Below are positions 26,481 to 64,000 of a stretch of 64,000 nucleotides of DNA, in pieces. This DNA comes from Candidatus Bathyarchaeota archaeon (GTDB lineage: Archaea > Thermoproteota > Bathyarchaeia > Bathyarchaeales > Bathycorpusculaceae). The translations under genes and the position numbers were made by a program. Location of the stretch: NCBI GenBank assembly GCA_963827165.1, contig CAWGZR010000005.1, positions 288,001 to 352,000 of the forward strand, in the 5' to 3' direction. Each line of letters opens with the position of its first letter. Positions within the stretch are counted from its first letter, which is position 1. The notes beneath the pieces were generated by a model. That model did not search any database, was not told where the DNA came from, and saw nothing but the letters and a program-made list of their open reading frames with translations.

Positions 26481-26632
26481 AGCGATTATTATGGCTTATT
26501 TTAGCTTAATCTAGCTTATTCTAGCTTATTATGGCTTAAAATAGCGTATTTTAGCTCACAGTTGCAGCCAAAAAAAGCCCCATTCCAAGAAAGCACTCCA
26601 AAACACAAACAAAAAAATTTCCCTGCCAAAAA
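26481..26632. repeat. 10-bp periodic array (7-8 x nnnGCTTAnn) plus conserved tail, copy A
   Basis: atggcttatt ttagcttaat ctagcttatt ctagcttatt atggcttaaa atagcgtatt ttagctcaca, then TGCAG-N7-AAGCCC-N5-CAAGAAAGCAC-TCCAAAACACAAAC. Confidence 0.85.
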
Positions 26633-26866: not shown

Positions 26867-28186
26867 TTATAGCTTGCGTTTTCTAAAGATTTTTGCGCCG
26901 TCGAATTCTGTGACGTATTCAAAGCCTGCTTCTATTAAGCTGCAGATTTCTTTTTCTGTCTTGGCTACTTTTGAGATGTAGTTTGTTTCGCCTTGGAATA
27001 GTGCTTCTTCAAGTTGGACGTATAAAAGTGTGTTTTTGATGTTTTTGTGGCCTAAGTCGTTGCATTACATAGAGCATGTCTTTGGTTTCGTGATAGAGCA
27101 TTGTTCCTTTCCAGTATCGGAAGGTATGGAAGTGGATTTTTAGCAGTCTAGGGTTGCTGAAGCTTGTATGACGGTTCTTTTTCGTTGGTGGTTAAGTGCT
27201 TACCGTAGTTGTCGATTCTCATGTTAGGTAAGTGAAAATATTTTGTCTCCGTAGTTTTTGGGAGCTTTTCGAGCATTTCTAAGAGTTTATTACTCAGGTG
27301 TACAACACGTGGGTTACTGTGTTTTTCGGCTGTTATATTGACAACTTTGCTTTCGAAGTCTATGTCCTCCCATTTTAGCTGCCAGATTTCTCCGCATCTT
27401 GCACCAGTTTCTTTTAGAACTTGCAGGAATGTTGCCATACGTTGAGTGCAGCCAGCTATGAGTTGGTCGATTTCTGTTTCTTTGGGGATGAATGGCAGTT
27501 TACGGATTGTTTGGTATAGCGGTGGATTCCCATGTGCCTCCGACCATTTTTAGGAATGAGCAGTAGGCATCTACAGCGTTGTTTTTTCTGCCGTTGCTCC
27601 AGGTTTGTTTAGCGATTGTTTCTTTGATAGTTTCTGGGTCGTAAAGGTTTGCGCCTCTTTTGTTGAGCACTTGAAGGAGTTTTGTTCTTCCGATGATTGT
27701 GGCTTCGCTTTTTCCGTCTTTTTTTAGCCACCAGGCATATTCGATGATTTTTCCTTTGACGTCGCCAGTTTGGTTTCTCCGCAGAACTTCAAATGGTTGA
27801 TGTTCTGCTTCCAAGTTTTTCGTCTCCGTGACGCATATTTGGCTTGCGTCAACTATGTCGTCTGTGCTTTTTAATGACTTCGATCAACTGTTTCAATTTC
27901 TTTCAAGTTGGCTGCGGCTTGCTTTGCTTTTTCTGTGTCGTTTGGGTCTGAAAATCTGCGTCCGCAGTCTCTGCAGTACCATCGTTGAATTTCATACCCG
28001 AAGCTGTCTTGTCGTTTGGCATCTTTCCAGACCTCTTTTGGATTTGCATAGGGGACATACAGGAAGAATAAGATCTGAACCTGCGTAATCAGTGAATTGG
28101 TTAATCGTTTCAGCAACTGTATCATTAGAGCTTATTGTAGTCACGTCAGTCACGGGAGTCACGGTCAAAATACAGTGGCTATCCAA
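26867..28186 (-). pseudogene. Tyrosine recombinase/integrase with N-terminal zinc ribbon, split by several frameshifts (possibly sequencing error)
   Basis: Fragments CPLC..CRDC, ETGARCGE, hand-translated IHFHTFRYWKGT..LGHKNIKNTLLY. Confidence 0.85.
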
Positions 28187-35096: not shown

Positions 35097-36547
35097 AATG
35101 AGACAACTCCACTTGATTATTATTTTTAGATTTCTATTGTTGAAACGTTCAGCTTTTATGCGTTCTAACAACTTCTCAGCAGGCTCATCAGCAGGGTCTT
35201 GAGGAACAAGTTTCCCTGCAAAAGCGTCTTTTAAAATACTTTGACGAAATTCTCACTAATGACAATTTGTCTTACAGTTTCTTCAGTTTCATCTAATGAC
35301 GAAAAATACGTTTCAACATTTTCACTATTTCCTTTTGTTCAACAAGTGGTGGAAGGGATCGGTATTGATTTCAAGTATTGTCAGGTTTACATATGATTTG
35401 ACCAGTGCCTAGTTACTTCTTTCAGTCTAATATTTGTAGACCAATTGAGAACATAAAAATAATTCAAATAGTTTGGCAATTTTTCACTGCAAATGGATCC
35501 AAACTAATTAATATGTGCTAAACACAAAGTCTTCTTTGAATTCACCAGTTACAGCGGTCTTGACCAACGATATTTAAAGTTCCATTCTGTTCGAAAACAG
35601 AAATCGTCACTTGGCTAACAGATTAGACTGTTTAATTGATTCTCTTCATTTTGGCATGTTACATAGAATCTACTTCAAGACGAGCCTTAACTATGTTGTA
35701 TTCGTAAAACAGGAAATCCTTCGGTGCTATGGAAAAGTTCCTTTAGGATATTCCATCCTCCTGAATATTAGAAGTTTCACCATATTTGTCCAAACCCATG
35801 TTTCAGGCAACTTGGGAAAATCATGAATCTCGTTATTTAACCATATTTTCGGCTATCTTTTTCTGATCTTTTATGCTTTGGTTACCTATTCTAGCAGTTT
35901 TTGATGCTGATTCTATCTGTTCTTTGTGTGTTTTTCGCCATTTTCTGTTAGTTTCCCTTCAAAGGCGTATTTTAGAACTGCTTGGCGGTAACGCTTAAGT
36001 TGCGCTTGCACTGCAGAGCGATTCTACGCCTGCATCGAGAAAAGAAAACAACTCCTCAACTTGCGAACAATACGAACTTGCTCATTAAATGGGAGCAAAA
36101 GGGATTGATAATTTGCGAATTACTTTTATTTCGATAGGTACGTTCCGTTGTCCGAAGCTTTATTCAATTATGCTTTTTTGAAATATTGATAAATGCACAT
36201 AAAATATATGAATTCAGAAAGATTATGGTTCTACAACGACGCATTTATTTCTGGTCACTGACCTCAGCAGCGAACAGTTTTCCTCGATTGATGCCTAGAA
36301 GGAAACCATGACTGTCTTTTTTGGCACAAGCCTTCTGTTCTAGCCCAAGTATTTGAGAGCTTGTTTCGATCTTTAACAATAAATTTCCCAGAATTGTAGG
36401 TCAGTTGGTTTGAGAATGGATAATATTTCCATAATTTCTGAGCAAGCTTGGAGGTGTTGTTCCCGTTACAACATTACCAATTGTTGAGACAGTTTACCGA
36501 CGCCCATCCGTTAGGCAACTGAGGAGATTAGCTATTTTCCTACTCAC
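35086..36547 (-). pseudogene. hsdS: Type I R-M specificity subunit HsdS, heavily frameshifted
   Basis: N-terminal LPNGW, central YRQAVLKYAFEG, C-terminal RQSILKDAFAGKLVPQDPADEPAEKLLERIK; lies between hsdR and hsdM. Confidence 0.85.
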
Positions 36548-39301
36548 TTTGTTAGCACCATGTTTAGTTCTTCTAGTGTTTTGTTTAGTTCTTTTCCGAA
36601 TAGTTGGTAGGCTTTGACTGCTCCGCCTTTCTGGTTAAAGGGTGATAGTTCGAAGGCGTCTATTCCAACGTTTAGGCTGGTGGTTATGTGTTGTTTTATC
36701 ATGTTTAGCCATTCAGTCTGTTCAGGCGTGAATTGTTTGCCATGGCTTTTTTGGTTGTTTAGCCATGCATTAAAGTTGCGGTCTACTTCGTCTGGGAAGG
36801 GCTCTAAAACGTTAGCTGAGCCGACTGCGAAGCGGACAAGAGAAACAATGTTGGTTAAGAGTTTCTGTGGACCGGCACCCAACACTTTTGATTTTTCCAA
36901 CTGTTCATAGGCAAGCCAAACGAGTTCAGGCGTCAAGTTATACGGTGGCTTCTTGATTGCATCAGCGAACTCTTTAATGGCGCCATAGGTTAATTGCCTT
37001 CTTCCAAAGGGTTGGCTGTAAATAATTTGAAGCGCCGTTAACTCATCTTTGTTCTTCTCGATAAAGTCTTTGAAAGATTTAACCGTTAATTTGAGCTTTC
37101 TCAGACGACTGCCTGGATCATGACCCTGCGGAAACCACTTCGTCTTTACTGACGTTGTCGATGGTTTGCTCATTTGCTCTGTTTAATCTCTATGACTTTG
37201 TTTCTGAACTCGGGCATATCAAAAACAGCACACGCAACCTTAGCCAATTCGTCAGCGCCCTTTTTAAATTGTAGGGGGTTGGGTTATCGGTTTTGAAGAG
37301 TTGTTTTGCTTTTTCAAGTTGCTTATCTGGGTCAACAGCATCTAATAATTCATTGATAACTTCTTTGAGCGTTTTCCTCCACCGCTTCGTTTTCAATCTC
37401 TTTGTGGAGCCTCATCCAATTCACGGTCAAAACGGGCAAGCGTCCAGCCAAAGAAGTCAAAGTATCAGTATCCCTAACACCCATAGCAACTGAATCCAAC
37501 AACTTATCAAAAGGAACTACTTCGCTTACGCTCTAACGGGCGGGAATCAGTTTTGTCGCTCTCACAAACACCCACCGCATCAACTATAACAAAATGGGTC
37601 TTGCTTCAGCATCCCCCGTAACCGACTTCAAATCAGTATCGGAAATAGTTCTTGTGCCCCGACCTTTCATCTGCTCAAAATAGACGCTTGAATGAATATC
37701 ACGCATAAACAACAAACACTCAAAAGGGCGAATGTCTGTGCCTGTAGAAATCATATCCACTGTAACCGCAACCCGTGGATTATACGAGTTTCTAAAGCTG
37801 GCAATCAAAACCTCAGTGGGTTCTCGCTATTGGTGCGGTAAGTAATTTTCTTGCAGAAATCATTTCCTTTGCCAAATTCTTCACGAATAATCTCAACAAT
37901 GTCCTCAGCATGGCTGTCATCCTTAGCAAAAACCAAGGTTTTAGGAACTTCTTTCGCCCAGGAAAAATCTCCGTAAACAGTTTGTCTCTGAAAGTGCGGA
38001 TAACCGTTCTTATCTGATCCTTAGCTACAACACTGCGGTCAAGCGCCCTAGCCTCATACTCTAAATCATCAGCTAACTGCTCCCAACGTACTTTGCGGCT
38101 TAGCTTATCACGTTTGTCAACATAAAAGCCAGCCTCAACCTTGCTGCCGCCACCAGTAATCTTTGTGTTAATGCGGTAAACATCATAGCCAACATTTACC
38201 CCGTCAGCTACGGCTCGGTCATGTCCATACTCCATAACAAATTCTGGTTAAAGAAACCCAAAGTTTGCTTAGAAGGCGTCGCCGTTAACCCAATGATGAA
38301 TGCGTCAAAATACTCAAGCACTTGACGCCACAAGATGGTAAATCGAGCGGTGGCACTCATCAGTAATTATCACATCAAACATTTCAAGAGGAATCTCAGG
38401 GTTATACACTACGTCAACGGGTTTAGTGTCTTTTTGGGGTAACTCAAAAGAGGAGGCTTCCTCGTTTTCCTCCAAAAAATCCTCACCGCGAAGCATAGCA
38501 TAGAGCCGTTGAATAGTTGTAATGCAAACTCTGCTTACTGAATCAATATTACGGGAAGTTAACCGTTGAACATTATACAACTCGGTGAACTTGCGGCCAT
38601 CATCAGGCGTTCCTATATTGCTGGAACTCCTGCAAAGTCTGTTTGGCTAAAGTATTGCGGTCAACTAAAAACAAAACCCGCCGAGCACCACCAAACTTTA
38701 TCAAACGGTAAACTTCGGTAACTGAGGTAAACGTTTTGCCACTGCCAGAAGCCATTTGAATTAACGCTCTGGGACGCGAATTAGCTAACGACAACTCCAA
38801 GTTCTCTAAGGCTTCAACTTGGCAATCACGCAACCCCTCCTTGATCAAAGGCGACATAGACCGCAAACGCTGCCTAAGCGTGCTCTCCTCATGCACCCAC
38901 TCATGCAACGTCTCAGGCTTATGAAAAGCAAAAACATGCCTCGAACGGCAATCGGGGTCACGCAAATCCCTAAAAAACGTCTCTACTCCCGTGCTTTCAT
39001 AAGCAAAGGGTAAAACATCGCCAACATGGGGGATATTCTGGGGCAAACTATGCAGATACTTCTCTGTCTGCTCCGAAACCCCACTTAAAGTCGTGCCTTC
39101 AGACTTAGCCTCCACAACACCTATGGCATGACGCTCAACAAATAACAAATAATCTGCAAACCCAGCTCCACTCAAAGGAAACTCGCGAACCGCAACGCCA
39201 ACACCGGCACCAAGGTTCAAATCCTTGTAATCCTGCACTAACCATCCTGCAGCTTCAAGCAACGCATCAATTTTTTTGCGAGCGGATTCCTCTGGTTTCA
39301 T
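36544..39301 (-). pseudogene. hsdR: Type I R-M restriction subunit HsdR (EcoEI-like), frameshifted
   Basis: ADYLL..VVEAK nuclease, MASGSGKT, DECHR, GLTATP, VDMISTGTD, QMKGRGTR. Confidence 0.92.
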
Positions 39302-45331: not shown

Positions 45332-46483
45332 ATGGGTCGGGAGTTAACCAGTATTCACTTCACGGGATGCAAAATCATGAATAAAAAATTGTCAGTAGCC
45401 ATTTTTGTAACGTGTTTTCTTTTTTCACTTATACTTTTTTCACAAATATCCTATTGTCAAACATCAACACCAACCTCTACAACACAGCCAACCCCAACGA
45501 AAGGATCAATATTTGGAGGTTCCAATGCCTTATTGCTTATTGTCGGAATCGTAGCAGTTATTGCAGTAGTTGTTGGACTTACGTTTGTATTTGTTTTAAA
45601 AAAGGGGCCGAATGAAAAGCGCCTCAGTGGTTTTTCACCCCGTGACTTCGAAGCCTGGGTAATAAAGAAATTCAATGGTAAACCAGGCGACCCGTCTTGG
45701 GGAGTAAATGGGTTTACTGAGGGAGGTCAACCTCTTTTGATTAAACAGTCCGGCCCAGTCAGCTTGGCCGAGGTTGAAGCTTTCGTGAAAGTGTTAGTTG
45801 ACGGAAGGGCACAAATGGGCACAATTGTAGCGTTCGATTTTGACAACGATGCCTCTGAAGGAAAAATAATAGCGATGGATAATGGGGTTGAACTTCAGCT
45901 AATGTCCATAAATGAGCTTGTGAATAAGCGCTATGCTGATAGGATTAAAAACCTTGCGCGTTCACAGGTTACCTTTGAGGTGCCGCCTGCATATATGGCG
46001 AATGACCAAATGACTCGAGAAGCGCCCATTAATGAAAGAGCGCCAATTGAGCCCCAAAAAGAGGATCTGAAACCTCGGGTCTTCATATCTAATAGCAAAA
46101 CTCAGGTCTCCAATCAAGTGATGAAAATGCTAGATTTTCTGCATTTCGACTATGTAATGGGAGATAAAGAAGAAACAACCGTGCCAATTCCTAACAATAA
46201 ATTTGGAATGATGAAAGATTGTGATTGTGCAATAATAAATATCGCTGCCGCTGAACAGGAGAGGAGGTACAGTGGACTTTACGTCTTAAATACTAATGTC
46301 ACCTCTGAAATCAACGCAGCCTATCTGAACTACAGTAGGCAAGTTATTTTGTTGGTTGAGAGAAAAGTTGACTTGCCTGCAAATCTTAAGGGTCTGATAA
46401 GAATTGAGTATGATAGTGATGATTTATCTTTCAACGTTGCAATGGATCTCAAGGACGCATTGGAAGGCTTTAAAAAACTGTAG
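45332..46483 (+). CDS. Membrane-anchored fusion: signal/TM, degenerate Mrr-like nuclease fold, TIR-like nucleotide-binding domain (start probably 45377)
   Basis: Two hydrophobic helices; SPRDFEAWV..GVNG..LLIKQS..GTIVAFDF; RVFIS..CDCAII..NVTSEINAA..ILLVE..LPANLKG. Confidence 0.75.
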   Translation: MGRELTSIHFTGCKIMNKKLSVAIFVTCFLFSLILFSQISYCQTSTPTSTTQPTPTKGSIFGGSNALLLIVGIVAVIAVVVGLTFVFVLKKGPNEKRLSGFSPRDFEAWVIKKFNGKPGDPSWGVNGFTEGGQPLLIKQSGPVSLAEVEAFVKVLVDGRAQMGTIVAFDFDNDASEGKIIAMDNGVELQLMSINELVNKRYADRIKNLARSQVTFEVPPAYMANDQMTREAPINERAPIEPQKEDLKPRVFISNSKTQVSNQVMKMLDFLHFDYVMGDKEETTVPIPNNKFGMMKDCDCAIINIAAAEQERRYSGLYVLNTNVTSEINAAYLNYSRQVILLVERKVDLPANLKGLIRIEYDSDDLSFNVAMDLKDALEGFKKL

Positions 46484-48764: not shown

Positions 48765-49010
48765 ATGATGTTTATGAGAGAGTCAAGCTGGAGATTGTTT
48801 GGAGCTGCGTTAGCGGTTTTAGGGGTTGTCTTCCTGCTCGGGGGATTAGCGGCTTATTTGGGCGATCATCCGCAGTATGAGGCAGTTTTGACTGTCTTCG
48901 GCGGGATTTTCCTTGTTTTTGGCGCAGGCTTGGTTGTAATCACTTTCTTTGAGAAGGACAAAGGTGATGCAACAAACATTAAAGCACCAATGAAAAAGAA
49001 AAAATCGTAA
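48765..49010 (+). CDS. Small two-TM membrane protein
   Basis: Two hydrophobic helices and a basic tail. Confidence 0.6.
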   Translation: MMFMRESSWRLFGAALAVLGVVFLLGGLAAYLGDHPQYEAVLTVFGGIFLVFGAGLVVITFFEKDKGDATNIKAPMKKKKS

Positions 49011-49140
49011 TTGACAACTTACCAAAAAAAGGACAGGTATTTAGCTTGCTCTACAAAGCTAAATGGAATCTGCATTTTTCTCTTTCTGGAAATATTCTTG
49101 AGTGCCTTCGCTTTGCGGTCTGTTGAAAATCTTCTTTGTT

Positions 49141-49603
49141 TGTCAAGTATTGTCAATTTGTGTCAAATCAGGTCATTTTATGTCAATTCAGGTCAAATTG
49201 TGTCAAAAAAAGTATCAACCTGCAAATGATTCGAGCTTCCAAACAAAAAAACAACCCAAAACACAAATGGAAAATCACAGCAAAATACTTCCGTCAGAAT
49301 CGAAGACTGTGAAGAACGGTAATGGACTTCTGTAGACGTTAAAGGACTTTGGGAGACGGTAAAGGACGGTGAAGGACGGCAAGGGACGGTAATGGACTTT
49401 TAGGGACGGATGCTGCAGATAATCTAAGCCCCCATGCAAAAAAGCAATGCATTACACAAACAAAAAATTTCTCTACCAAAAAACGCGGACCCAACGCTAA
49501 CAAATCTGCGGTCCTATCTTATGATCTATTTTTGACTTTTTGAGATGTTTTGGGAGAATAGTTGCAACCGATCCAAGCCCCAAACCAGAAAAGCAACCAA
49601 AAC
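49141..49603. repeat. Three tandem array-plus-tail modules (copies B, C, D)
   Basis: B: 7 x nGTCAAnnnn (49141-49210), tail from 49221; C: 11 x nnnnGACnnn (49301-49410), tail from 49414; D: eroded array, tail from 49563. Confidence 0.85.
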
Positions 49604-49693: not shown

Positions 49694-51583
49694 CTACTTT
49701 ATTATCCGAGTGTTGTAGGTTTTCAGGTACGTTTGGTGTTGTGAATCTTGCGGGTAGGTTTCGCTTGATGGGTATGGAAAGCTTGTCATGGTTTGGAACG
49801 GAAGCGGGTTAACAGTAAAGGGCACGTAGGGTAACCCGTTGCCTTTAAACCAGCAGTTGGCAACCACGAAGTAGTCTCTTACCCAGCCTTTTGGAACAGG
49901 AGGCAAATCCGCTAGAAACTGGATTGAAACTACGTCTCCTTGTCGCCCGATCACGAATTGGTTGTCAGTAGACTGCTCCAGCGACGTGACATCGCCGTAC
50001 TTTGTGAAAGCGCCGCTGGAAGTTGAGTTGGAACCGTATGCCTGAGACAAGACAGCTGATGAAGGCGTTAGGGTGTATACATTCATATCCTGCTGAGGCG
50101 ACGTGCTTACACCGATGTAATCGAATTGGAACAGTTGGTAATAGTTTATTCTGAGCATGAAATTGTTAGTTGGGAACAGCCCGGTCAAGTTCACGTCGAA
50201 GGTCTGGTCAGTAGTTGCGGGAATAGGAAATTCTCTATTCTCTGGAACGTTTACCCAGCTTCCGTTCGCAGCCATCACCTGCATGTACGGCGGCGGCGAA
50301 GGCATCACACCCGGCTTGTTGGCGTAACTCATAAAATTCTCGCCTCCTGCGCTGGTGCTTGGCCATTCAGTACGCGCCGCAACCACCAAGTCGATATTCG
50401 TTGCACCCGACAAATTACCGAGATTAAGCGTTAAGTTATTCCATGTCCACCTGTTGGCCGTGGTGAAAACTCCATCCAGCTTAGAGACTTGCGGAAGAAC
50501 GTTTTGTCCCTCCCCGTTGATCGCTGAAACCGGCGTCGAAAAGTGGTTGTTTAAAGAATAGATTGTTCCCTGACCAGAAAGGTCATTAACGAATGTGCTT
50601 TTGGTCGAGAAAACATCCGTACCAGCGGGGTGGTCCACAGCCAGCAGTTTAACCGAGTCCAAATAGAAGATTTCGTTTGTGTCTTCAGCGATTTGCATGT
50701 TATAAAACCCGTTGAGAGGCTGCAGCTGAGTTGAATCGAGCTTTATGTAATCATAGGGGTAATTGTAGGAGAAAACCATTGAGCCGTCAGGATTGAAGTA
50801 CTCGAGAAAACCTAACCAGCCCGTACCATCATTAACGTCTGCCGCGTAACTGTAACCGGTTCCGTTCCACGCGTAAAGTTCAGGGCACGAAGTCGGCGCT
50901 GTCCTCGCATAATTTCCGACTTCATAAGTTAAGCCTTCAACATCGAACGCTTGGGTAAGGCTAGTAGACCCACCGTTCCATCCTGAAAAGCCATAGGTAA
51001 CCAATCCCCATTCACTGCTTTCAACTTGCTGTGAAGCTGGAACGGTAATAGTATGGGTGCCAACAGGCACCAGACCTGAGAATCCAGCGGTATACGAGAC
51101 GCCATCCAAACTAAATTTGATCCCTGGTATGTTCATGATAACATTTAAAGTATGCATGCCAGTCGGAACTACGTTAAACGTGTTAGCTTGCCCTCCCCCA
51201 TTCAAATTGTAGCTTCCAACGGCGCTCTCGTTCAACAAGGCAGTTACATTCAAAATAGTGCCTCCTGCCATCTGAATGGGAACGCTTTGCACTATGGCAC
51301 CATTTACCGAGAAAGGAAACAGATAGCTGATGTTTCCGCTCCCTCGATTCCTTACTTCAACTGAAACGGTGATGGTTTGGTTAGGCCACGCTTCAATCGG
51401 GTTAATGAATAAATTTGAAACAGTAACCGAGCTGGGTAACGCGGTTGGCGGAGGGGCAGCCGTAGGTTTAGGAGGCGCAGAAGGAACAGCAGGCGTAGGC
51501 GAAGGCGCATGCGGTTGGGAACCAAAATAGTTGTTTTCGTAGAAATATGCAATGGCATCTCCTGCCGCGATCAAAATCAACAC
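49694..51583 (-). CDS. Large secreted/surface protein: Ig/CARDB-like domains plus SCP..WNG domain as in ASPIC/UnbV-associated proteins
   Basis: Pro-rich linker, VEVRNRG Ig-like, TSCPELYAWNG, E..YLDSVKLLAVDHP, YNTR end; frame extends upstream to RLAINKIQAAIIVVL. Confidence 0.75.
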   Translation of the reverse strand: MLILIAAGDAIAYFYENNYFGSQPHAPSPTPAVPSAPPKPTAAPPPTALPSSVTVSNLFINPIEAWPNQTITVSVEVRNRGSGNISYLFPFSVNGAIVQSVPIQMAGGTILNVTALLNESAVGSYNLNGGGQANTFNVVPTGMHTLNVIMNIPGIKFSLDGVSYTAGFSGLVPVGTHTITVPASQQVESSEWGLVTYGFSGWNGGSTSLTQAFDVEGLTYEVGNYARTAPTSCPELYAWNGTGYSYAADVNDGTGWLGFLEYFNPDGSMVFSYNYPYDYIKLDSTQLQPLNGFYNMQIAEDTNEIFYLDSVKLLAVDHPAGTDVFSTKSTFVNDLSGQGTIYSLNNHFSTPVSAINGEGQNVLPQVSKLDGVFTTANRWTWNNLTLNLGNLSGATNIDLVVAARTEWPSTSAGGENFMSYANKPGVMPSPPPYMQVMAANGSWVNVPENREFPIPATTDQTFDVNLTGLFPTNNFMLRINYYQLFQFDYIGVSTSPQQDMNVYTLTPSSAVLSQAYGSNSTSSGAFTKYGDVTSLEQSTDNQFVIGRQGDVVSIQFLADLPPVPKGWVRDYFVVANCWFKGNGLPYVPFTVNPLPFQTMTSFPYPSSETYPQDSQHQTYLKTYNTRIIK

Positions 51584-63774: not shown

Positions 63775-63850
63775 GAGGGAATTAGCGTTTTTCTCACCCT
63801 TGTTGGCCAATGGGATCTTTGACTTTAATGTTAAATGACGGTGGTCGCTT

Positions 63851-64000
63851 GTTGACTTTTGTTGACGTTAGTTGACTTTAGTAGACTTTTATTGACTTTA
63901 GTTGACTTTTGTTGACTATTGTTGACTTTGGTAGACTTTAGTTGACGCAACCTGCAGACAATTCAAGCCCTAAACCAAAAAAGCAATCCAAAACACAAAC
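63851..64000. repeat. 10-bp periodic array (10 x GTTGACnnnn) plus conserved tail, copy E (runs off the window)
   Basis: gttgactttt gttgacgtta gttgacttta gtagactttt.., then TGCAG-ACAATTC-AAGCCC-TAAAC-CAAAAAAGCAA-TCCAAAACACAAAC. Confidence 0.88.

Follow-up and report, generated by a model that had tools for sequence, protein, structure and literature searches.

We propose that the 10-bp-phased arrays and constant tails described here are inserted upstream regions of a gene family encoding a small double-AbrB protein, and that they probably act as protein landing pads with one box per helical turn, occupied in trans where a copy has no gene; we give this reading a probability of about 0.5. The main new result is the polarity of these modules, whose tails mostly face conserved gene blocks and whose array sides mostly face variable DNA. 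Also new are window sites that are empty in a relative, boxes that are kept in gene-less copies, arrays that are swapped at the tail, and capture between transposon ends. We found no description of the family in the literature on Bathyarchaeia repeats, IS/MITEs and AbrB/MraZ or in that on archaeal boundary elements, and Bathyarchaeia are absent from the main text of a 2026 survey of archaeal IS.

Window copies and the genome-wide family

A sequence-only reading of the window (the whole stretch of 64,000 nucleotides that was analysed) had placed five same-orientation tails at 26563, 49221, 49414, 49563 and 63953, each directly preceded by an array of 10-bp period. We verified all five starts, on one strand and in the same orientation, together with the arrays and the cores given for them. 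As minor corrections, tail B reads AGCTTC where AGCCC had been given, and tail D is divergent from about 40 bases onwards. The features are:

26481..26559, plus strand: array A, about 8 phased units with a GCTT-type box, likely operator boxes
26563..26620, plus strand: tail A, directed toward tRNA-Leu (26726)
48765..49010, plus strand: ORF of 81 aa, membrane-protein-like, lying to the array side of B and without a Pfam family above cut-off
49138..49217, plus strand: array B, about 8 phased units with a GTCA-type box, gap-free match in a strain contig
49221..49278, plus strand: tail B
49301..49410, plus strand: array C, about 11 phased units with a GAC(G/T)-type box
49414..49472, plus strand: tail C, then a linker typical of D-type modules
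49520..49559, plus strand: array D, short and eroded, GA(T/C)-type
49563..49603, plus strand: tail D
63849..63949, plus strand: array E, 10 phased units with a GACT-type box
63953..64000, plus strand: tail E, continuing past the window end, with a GC(G/A)T-type module stacked behind it

The array type of E is also the one found before an intact gene of the linked family at C7:3043 of this genome (G000), and a sixth module lies behind E, slightly past the window end, at G000 C5:352160. An Rfam search of the window returned two tRNAs and nothing else. As a separate observation, a 16-base motif recurs at four loci (G000 C2:33036, C5:337644, C5:684122 and C10:353842), 80-84 bases beyond the start of the tail; window copy D is among them, with the motif 81 bases on.

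The genome is assigned to Bathyarchaeia by the sources of its homologues. Across its 3.13 Mb, a profile of the 46-bp tail alone gave 96 matches above 16 bits and 93 above 22 bits, compared to none in the reversed genome. The 93 strong matches and one further copy carrying an indel make up our set of 94 modules, which occupy 66 loci (45 single, 14 double and 7 triple); two weak loci without an array were left out of the spacing tests. Upstream period-10 identity reached at least 0.5 in 78 of 92 strong tail matches and in 3 of 973 control intergenic stretches, and the array autocorrelation peaks at lags 10, 20, 30, 40 and 50, with no peak at 21, 31, 32, 42 or 52. About 10 box types occur in the genome, stacked in varying order. 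Eroded and truncated copies are present as well. The orientation of modules relative to adjacent ORFs is random (18/18/18/12), which led us to reject the module as a promoter or terminator of neighbouring genes. We also rejected the tail as a coding sequence, given stops in both candidate frames in many copies and single-base indels (profile inspected by eye).

The sequence-only reading had further suggested a non-coding RNA family, or arrays that an enzyme would build by iterative templated synthesis, and a constant tail that adjoins a variable repeat and ends sharply near +50 to +60 would suit either. We nonetheless consider both extremely improbable, given that neither strand of the modules carries a folding signal (z-scores -1.9 to +1.8) or a hairpin signal, that no Rfam match was found, that arrays B and C show no gain or loss of units in strain contigs (contigs only, in which rare variants would escape), that sister copies have the order of unit variants in common, and that the sole reverse transcriptase match of the genome (G000 C3:147878-148521, minus strand) is split into two frames. 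Hypervariable unit number or content among strains, by which CRISPR or enzyme-made arrays would be recognised, was likewise not seen in the strain contigs. A further explanation starts from the base composition of the arrays, in which a G/C-containing box recurs every 10 bp between runs of A/T. Archaeal histone-positioning patterns resemble such an alternation, so that the arrays might be histone-positioning or intrinsically bent DNA whose link to the small gene is incidental. This is very improbable, since the boxes are sequence-specific and type-stable, several array types have spacers that are A-rich and not T-rich, and an array precedes every gene copy in this genome.

A linked gene family for a double-AbrB protein

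The linked gene family encodes a 92-aa double-AbrB protein with a PHS018/MraZ-like fold. This genome has 7 copies of the gene (5 intact, 2 broken), and every one of them begins 72-193 bp from a tail that lies on the opposite strand, with the array immediately in front of the gene; on the minus strand, the complete unit thus reads tail, array, gene. One more gene fragment (E 0.27) has no module. The earlier remark that no cognate gene is adjacent is correct within the window, but fails at these 7 other loci. The loci fetched from this and other genomes contain 144 distinct gene matches, 131 of which had enough upstream DNA for a tail check, and a module lies upstream on the opposite strand at 109 of these 131 (pooled). 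Among 119 other genomes of the genus, we found the tail pattern in 38 and the gene in 70. The gene occurs in 37 of the 38 tail-positive genomes, against 70 of 119 overall, in a sample of related and thus not independent genomes. In a class-wide draw, 10 out of 151 genomes carried the gene. The family includes 5-15 paralogues with different boxes, with up to 12 boxes per array. It counts against our reading that this genome, 94.5% complete, yielded no gene behind an array of type A, B or C, and that the 109 gene loci with a tail include none with an array of type A or C.

The predicted structure of the protein (pLDDT 89) has PHS018 as the best match in a fold search (TM 0.72), with a probability of 1.0 for MraZ, and the best sequence match is also to PHS018 (2glw, E 9e-4). 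The protein thus has two SpoVT/AbrB repeats. Pfam returned 0 families for 5 proteins of the family, and NCBIfam, run on 73 members, returned no MraZ model and weak matches to an AbrB model for 3 of the 73. Among 612 neighbours of the 131 gene loci there was no constant partner gene and no recurring mobility gene; the commonest neighbour is a carB-like gene (17 of 131 loci), followed by PIN- and HicAB-like genes (our reading). Box type tracks protein clade, and the columns of highest information in the protein comprise predicted contact loops (16, 18, 58, 60) as well as clade markers. A protein-box recognition code beyond kinship was unsupported, as the tree control comes down to 3 independent pairs, with which the match of box type and clade is inseparable from co-inheritance. 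We also noted tandem duplications of about 1.5 kb at three loci (L064 in G012 C1, L069 and L070), each with a short-array gene copy, in genomes without module expansion.

MraZ is described with 4-bp boxes, 6-bp spacers and a start site in box 1 (PMC12957436). Like MraZ at the dcw promoter, the family joins a double SpoVT/AbrB fold to boxes that stand immediately in front of its own gene and repeat with a period of exactly 10 bp (PMC12957436), and in short-array loci a promoter motif lies just upstream of the first box. The two differ in protein length (92 aa here, about 140-160 aa in MraZ) and in context, with no dcw operon (mraW, ftsL, ftsZ) and no constant neighbour here, as well as in the roughly 90 gene-less, inserted, stacked and oriented copies and the 5-15 paralogues of the present family. 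The module likely works like an MraZ operator; the family is not a member of the MraZ system, because it has no profile match and no dcw context. PHS018 of Pyrococcus horikoshii (PDB 2glw) is described as uncharacterised, and an alignment alone is the basis for predicting that it recognises DNA (PMC4333400). It equals the present protein in length and is its best match in sequence and fold, whereas no array or dispersed element is mentioned for it in the available part of that source (PMC4333400).

The tail itself may derive from a promoter. We scored the loci with a BRE/TATA-like motif matrix, a crude one derived from the upstream regions of 41 tRNAs. Among 24 short-array gene loci, 15 reach or exceed the tRNA 10th percentile, and the motif peaks within the tail, roughly 24 bases ahead of the first box. 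The mean score of the TATA-like motif is negative both for 85 long-array gene loci and for the modules of this genome; of these 92 modules, 9 reach the tRNA 10th percentile, and none of the five window copies is among them. Because the motif peaks in short-array gene loci and scores negative in long-array loci and modules, the tail is likely a promoter-derived region in which the TATA part has mostly decayed and the distal half is kept. The ancestral unit would have been an autorepressed promoter from which transcription began in the first box, as it does for MraZ, and in the expanded lineage the TATA part would have decayed while the boxes and the distal tail were retained.

The boxes of gene-less copies are also conserved: in 19 independent pairs of such copies, box positions differ at 32 of 456 and spacer positions at 91 of 456. 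This fits continued putative binding, although conversion between units, and not selection, could alternatively account for it. Gene-less arrays would be bound in trans by paralogues, in phase. The idea of a protein-loading platform acting in trans, raised from the window alone, gains from both results, with a cognate gene of predicted DNA-binding fold behind the module at the 7 other loci and boxes conserved over spacers in gene-less copies. If the boxes are bound in this way, the modules are a natural library of at least 10 operator types with paralogous 92-aa readers, and would offer a direct route to the specificity of the AbrB/MraZ fold.

Insertion sites, array exchange and transposon ends

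All three window loci (A, B-C-D and E) are empty in the relative G085, and the B-C-D and E sites are empty in G110 as well. At the A site, the spacing from tRNA-Thr to tRNA-Leu is 218 in G085 compared to 558 here. The B-C-D site measures about 1,020 bp here and about 200 bp in both G085 and G110, and the roughly 820 bp missing in these relatives include the 81-aa ORF (48765..49010). Several G110 stacks occupy sites that are empty in this genome, and at three sites the array types differ between the two genomes. Array type and sequence are linked at 0.8 at position -1, and by +1 this linkage has fallen to about 0; five recent copies in G105 have a common tail and extension with two array types, joined at -2. 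Together, these observations show an exchange of arrays at the first bases of the common tail.

In two relatives, G105 and G016, a tail start precedes 14 of the 16 IS-like right ends that we examined by 114-240 bases. The 16 right ends (G105, G016 and this genome) gave 6 complete TIR-bounded units of 278-620 bp with a perfect or near-perfect 9-bp duplication; the target duplication matches at 9/9 positions at L318, 8/9 at L315 and L331, and 7/9 at L322. Non-autonomous units with IS701/ISC1217-type ends hold one or two modules (L318, L322, L324, L330 and L331, in G105 and G016), and the flanks of L324 and L330 are exchanged, which suggests that copies have recombined with each other. In this genome, the same end terminates a DDE_5 / DDE_Tnp_2, ISC1217-type transposase gene, and one query for an intact transposase for the G105 ends gave 0 matches in G105. 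In this genome, TIRs with duplications around modules are not above null (4 of 66 loci compared to 12 of 130 null pairs), so that the route of spread here is one that we only infer. The enzyme inventory of the genome consists of 7 tyrosine-recombinase matches and the split reverse transcriptase, with no Y1 transposase, and none of these enzymes is linked to modules. The modules of G105 and G016 resemble IS701/ISC1217-type MITEs in lying inside inverted-repeat-bounded units with 9-bp duplications; unlike in such MITEs, the module is cargo and not the terminal repeat, and no such ends bound modules here. The modules are therefore not a MITE in this genome, and ride in MITE-like units elsewhere. 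A match to IS or MITE ends, which the sequence-only reading had set against its own proposal, thus exists in two relatives as secondary capture and is lacking in this genome.

We propose that copies spread in two ways, by being captured between the ends of IS elements and by recombining through the tail that they have in common; the latter is the putative route in this genome, and would replace or stack arrays. With such a mode of spread, each copy would mark a junction of inserted or replaced DNA with conserved DNA. A copy would pass between lineages most easily when its tail side is the homologous flank, and would survive at the edges of conserved blocks, where the tail flank gives homology and the array side gains or loses DNA. 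Alternatively, the gene-less copies might be selfish or neutral MITE-like debris that is irrelevant to protein binding, with polarity arising from insertion or survival bias. Insertion polymorphism, eroded and truncated copies, random orientation to neighbouring genes and, in G105 and G016, the IS-end capture with its target duplications and exchanged flanks all agree with debris. We consider it improbable, as spacers change three times as much as boxes in pairs of gene-less copies, this genome has no TIR/duplication signal, and debris would be expected within variable regions, yet tail-side synteny is nearby at all G110 loci compared (see below). As a side observation, about 25 kb of this genome are present twice at 89-96% identity (G000 C3:43337-70157 and C6:1-25810), as a segmental duplication or through a strain mixture in the assembly.

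Polarity toward conserved gene blocks

In this genome, neighbouring modules that face each other with their tails (15 pairs) lie at a median distance of 17.7 kb, 13 of them within 25 kb, whereas those that face each other with their arrays (8 pairs) lie at a median of 61 kb, with 1 within 25 kb (rank test, p 2.7e-4). The 25-kb threshold was chosen after viewing the data of this genome and was then fixed for the others. At this fixed threshold, five other genomes gave 13 tail-to-tail and 1 array-to-array neighbours (p 1.5e-4) and five further genomes gave 8 and 1 (p 0.013), based on module lists that are incomplete, as the pattern used recovers 56 of the roughly 93 modules here. Over all 11 genomes, 34 tail-to-tail neighbours within 25 kb stand against 3 array-to-array ones. 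The enclosed blocks of 2-27 kb carry ribosomal, translation and replication genes (our reading of ORF lists). This orientation rule, tail into conserved DNA in 11 genomes, connects a regulatory cassette with genome architecture, and is a candidate for how an abundant uncultured archaeal lineage separates or exchanges core and variable DNA.

The comparison with G110, at 22 loci within the fetched 1.16 of 3.0 Mb, shows the same polarity. The alignable fraction of the 3-kb flank is 0.89 on the tail side, 0.59 on the array side and 0.62 in control gaps, and the tail side exceeds the array side at 17 loci compared to 5 (p 1.2e-4). The median length of collinear runs is 9.8 kb on the tail side, 0.8 kb on the array side and 1.8 kb in the control; the tail-side excess is gone by about 20 kb, and array-side conservation equals background (p 0.5). 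None of the 22 G110 loci lacks nearby tail-side synteny, compared to 26% of control sides. The reverse comparison is weaker and has the same direction (0.70 versus 0.52 over 6 kb, 20 versus 10 of 34, p 0.03; over 3 kb, p 0.055). The G+C content is marginally higher on the tail side. A picture in which modules mark the end of an island explains only in part an enrichment of the tail side next to an array side that equals background.

Two further explanations take the polarity as a function. According to the first, modules are selected boundary elements, at which polymerised protein forms oriented barriers or loop anchors around the 2-27-kb core-gene blocks. The excess of tail-to-tail neighbours, the gene content of the enclosed blocks, the decay of tail-side conservation over about 20 kb and the boxes retained in gene-less copies are in its favour, as is one inward-facing pair, 22 kb apart, at a carB-like and a DUF255-like gene (C5:885511 and C5:862778), whose members are alike at 0.90 and 0.96 within two species compared to 0.73-0.76 between them. 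This pair is an apparent single case of concerted evolution. We regard boundary elements as unlikely, since partner arms are generally no more alike than non-partners (at least 0.8 alike in 3 of 16 versus 7 of 72, p 0.13-0.38; p 0.40 in the own genome), sites turn over between congeneric species, and 81 of 119 genomes of the genus have no tail-pattern match. Matched pairs, or concerted evolution in general, were not upheld, as a module-level p of 0.005 did not hold per locus. Inversion between inverted pairs was rejected too, with a pair in G135 C4 and the carB pair being collinear with this genome on both sides. Four genomes carry a module at the site behind the carB-like gene, and four array types are represented there (G000 C5:885511; L060, L061, L062 and L063).

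The second takes the modules as polar start sites for DNA transfer or packaging, similar to mimics of an oriT, at which an enzyme acting in trans would mobilise the tail-side DNA. The pWBG749-family oriT of Staphylococcus aureus comes in subtypes that are recognised by their own small accessory proteins (SmpO), with gene-less mimics used in trans (PMC8136818), and the modules match it in having several site subtypes around a constant core, a putatively cognate small protein, and gene-less copies that would be used in trans. The likeness is anatomical: the modules are chromosomal and archaeal, and have 10-bp-phased arrays instead of GNNNNC sites. Besides this anatomy, mixed-type stacks of varying order, tail-side collinearity (median 9.8 kb versus 1.8 kb in the control) and replacement at fixed sites would suit a transfer origin. 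It seems rather improbable, given that no mobility gene recurs among the 612 neighbours of 131 gene loci, that two tail patterns had 0 matches in viral contigs, which gave one partial gene match only, and that the genome has no Y1 transposase and the modules no hairpin signal. A broader formulation, in which the roughly 90 oriented arrays and the MraZ-like paralogues of this Bathyarchaeia lineage make up a chromosome-organising system whose inward-facing cassettes fence core blocks of 2-27 kb, as an archaeal equivalent of oriented boundary elements, or else polar entry sites for the exchange of these blocks between cells, is possible though doubtful. The landing-pad reading, with survival favoured at block edges, remains the one that we prefer.

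The surroundings of the window copies hold several genes of separate interest. Directly behind tRNA-Leu lies a tyrosine integrase in two pieces (27148-27814, minus strand), and pieces of a broken type I restriction gene extend over 36544-39301; the split integrase and the broken restriction genes suggest a decayed island that integrated at tRNA-Leu. A 383-aa protein (45332-46483, plus strand), the C-terminal part of which gave a weak CAP12/Pycsar TIR-like match that falls below the cut-off (E 1.7e-4), is a possible defence effector. Finally, a secreted-looking protein of 629 aa without a Pfam match (49694-51583, minus strand), whose end abuts tail D, is kept in both G085 and G110.
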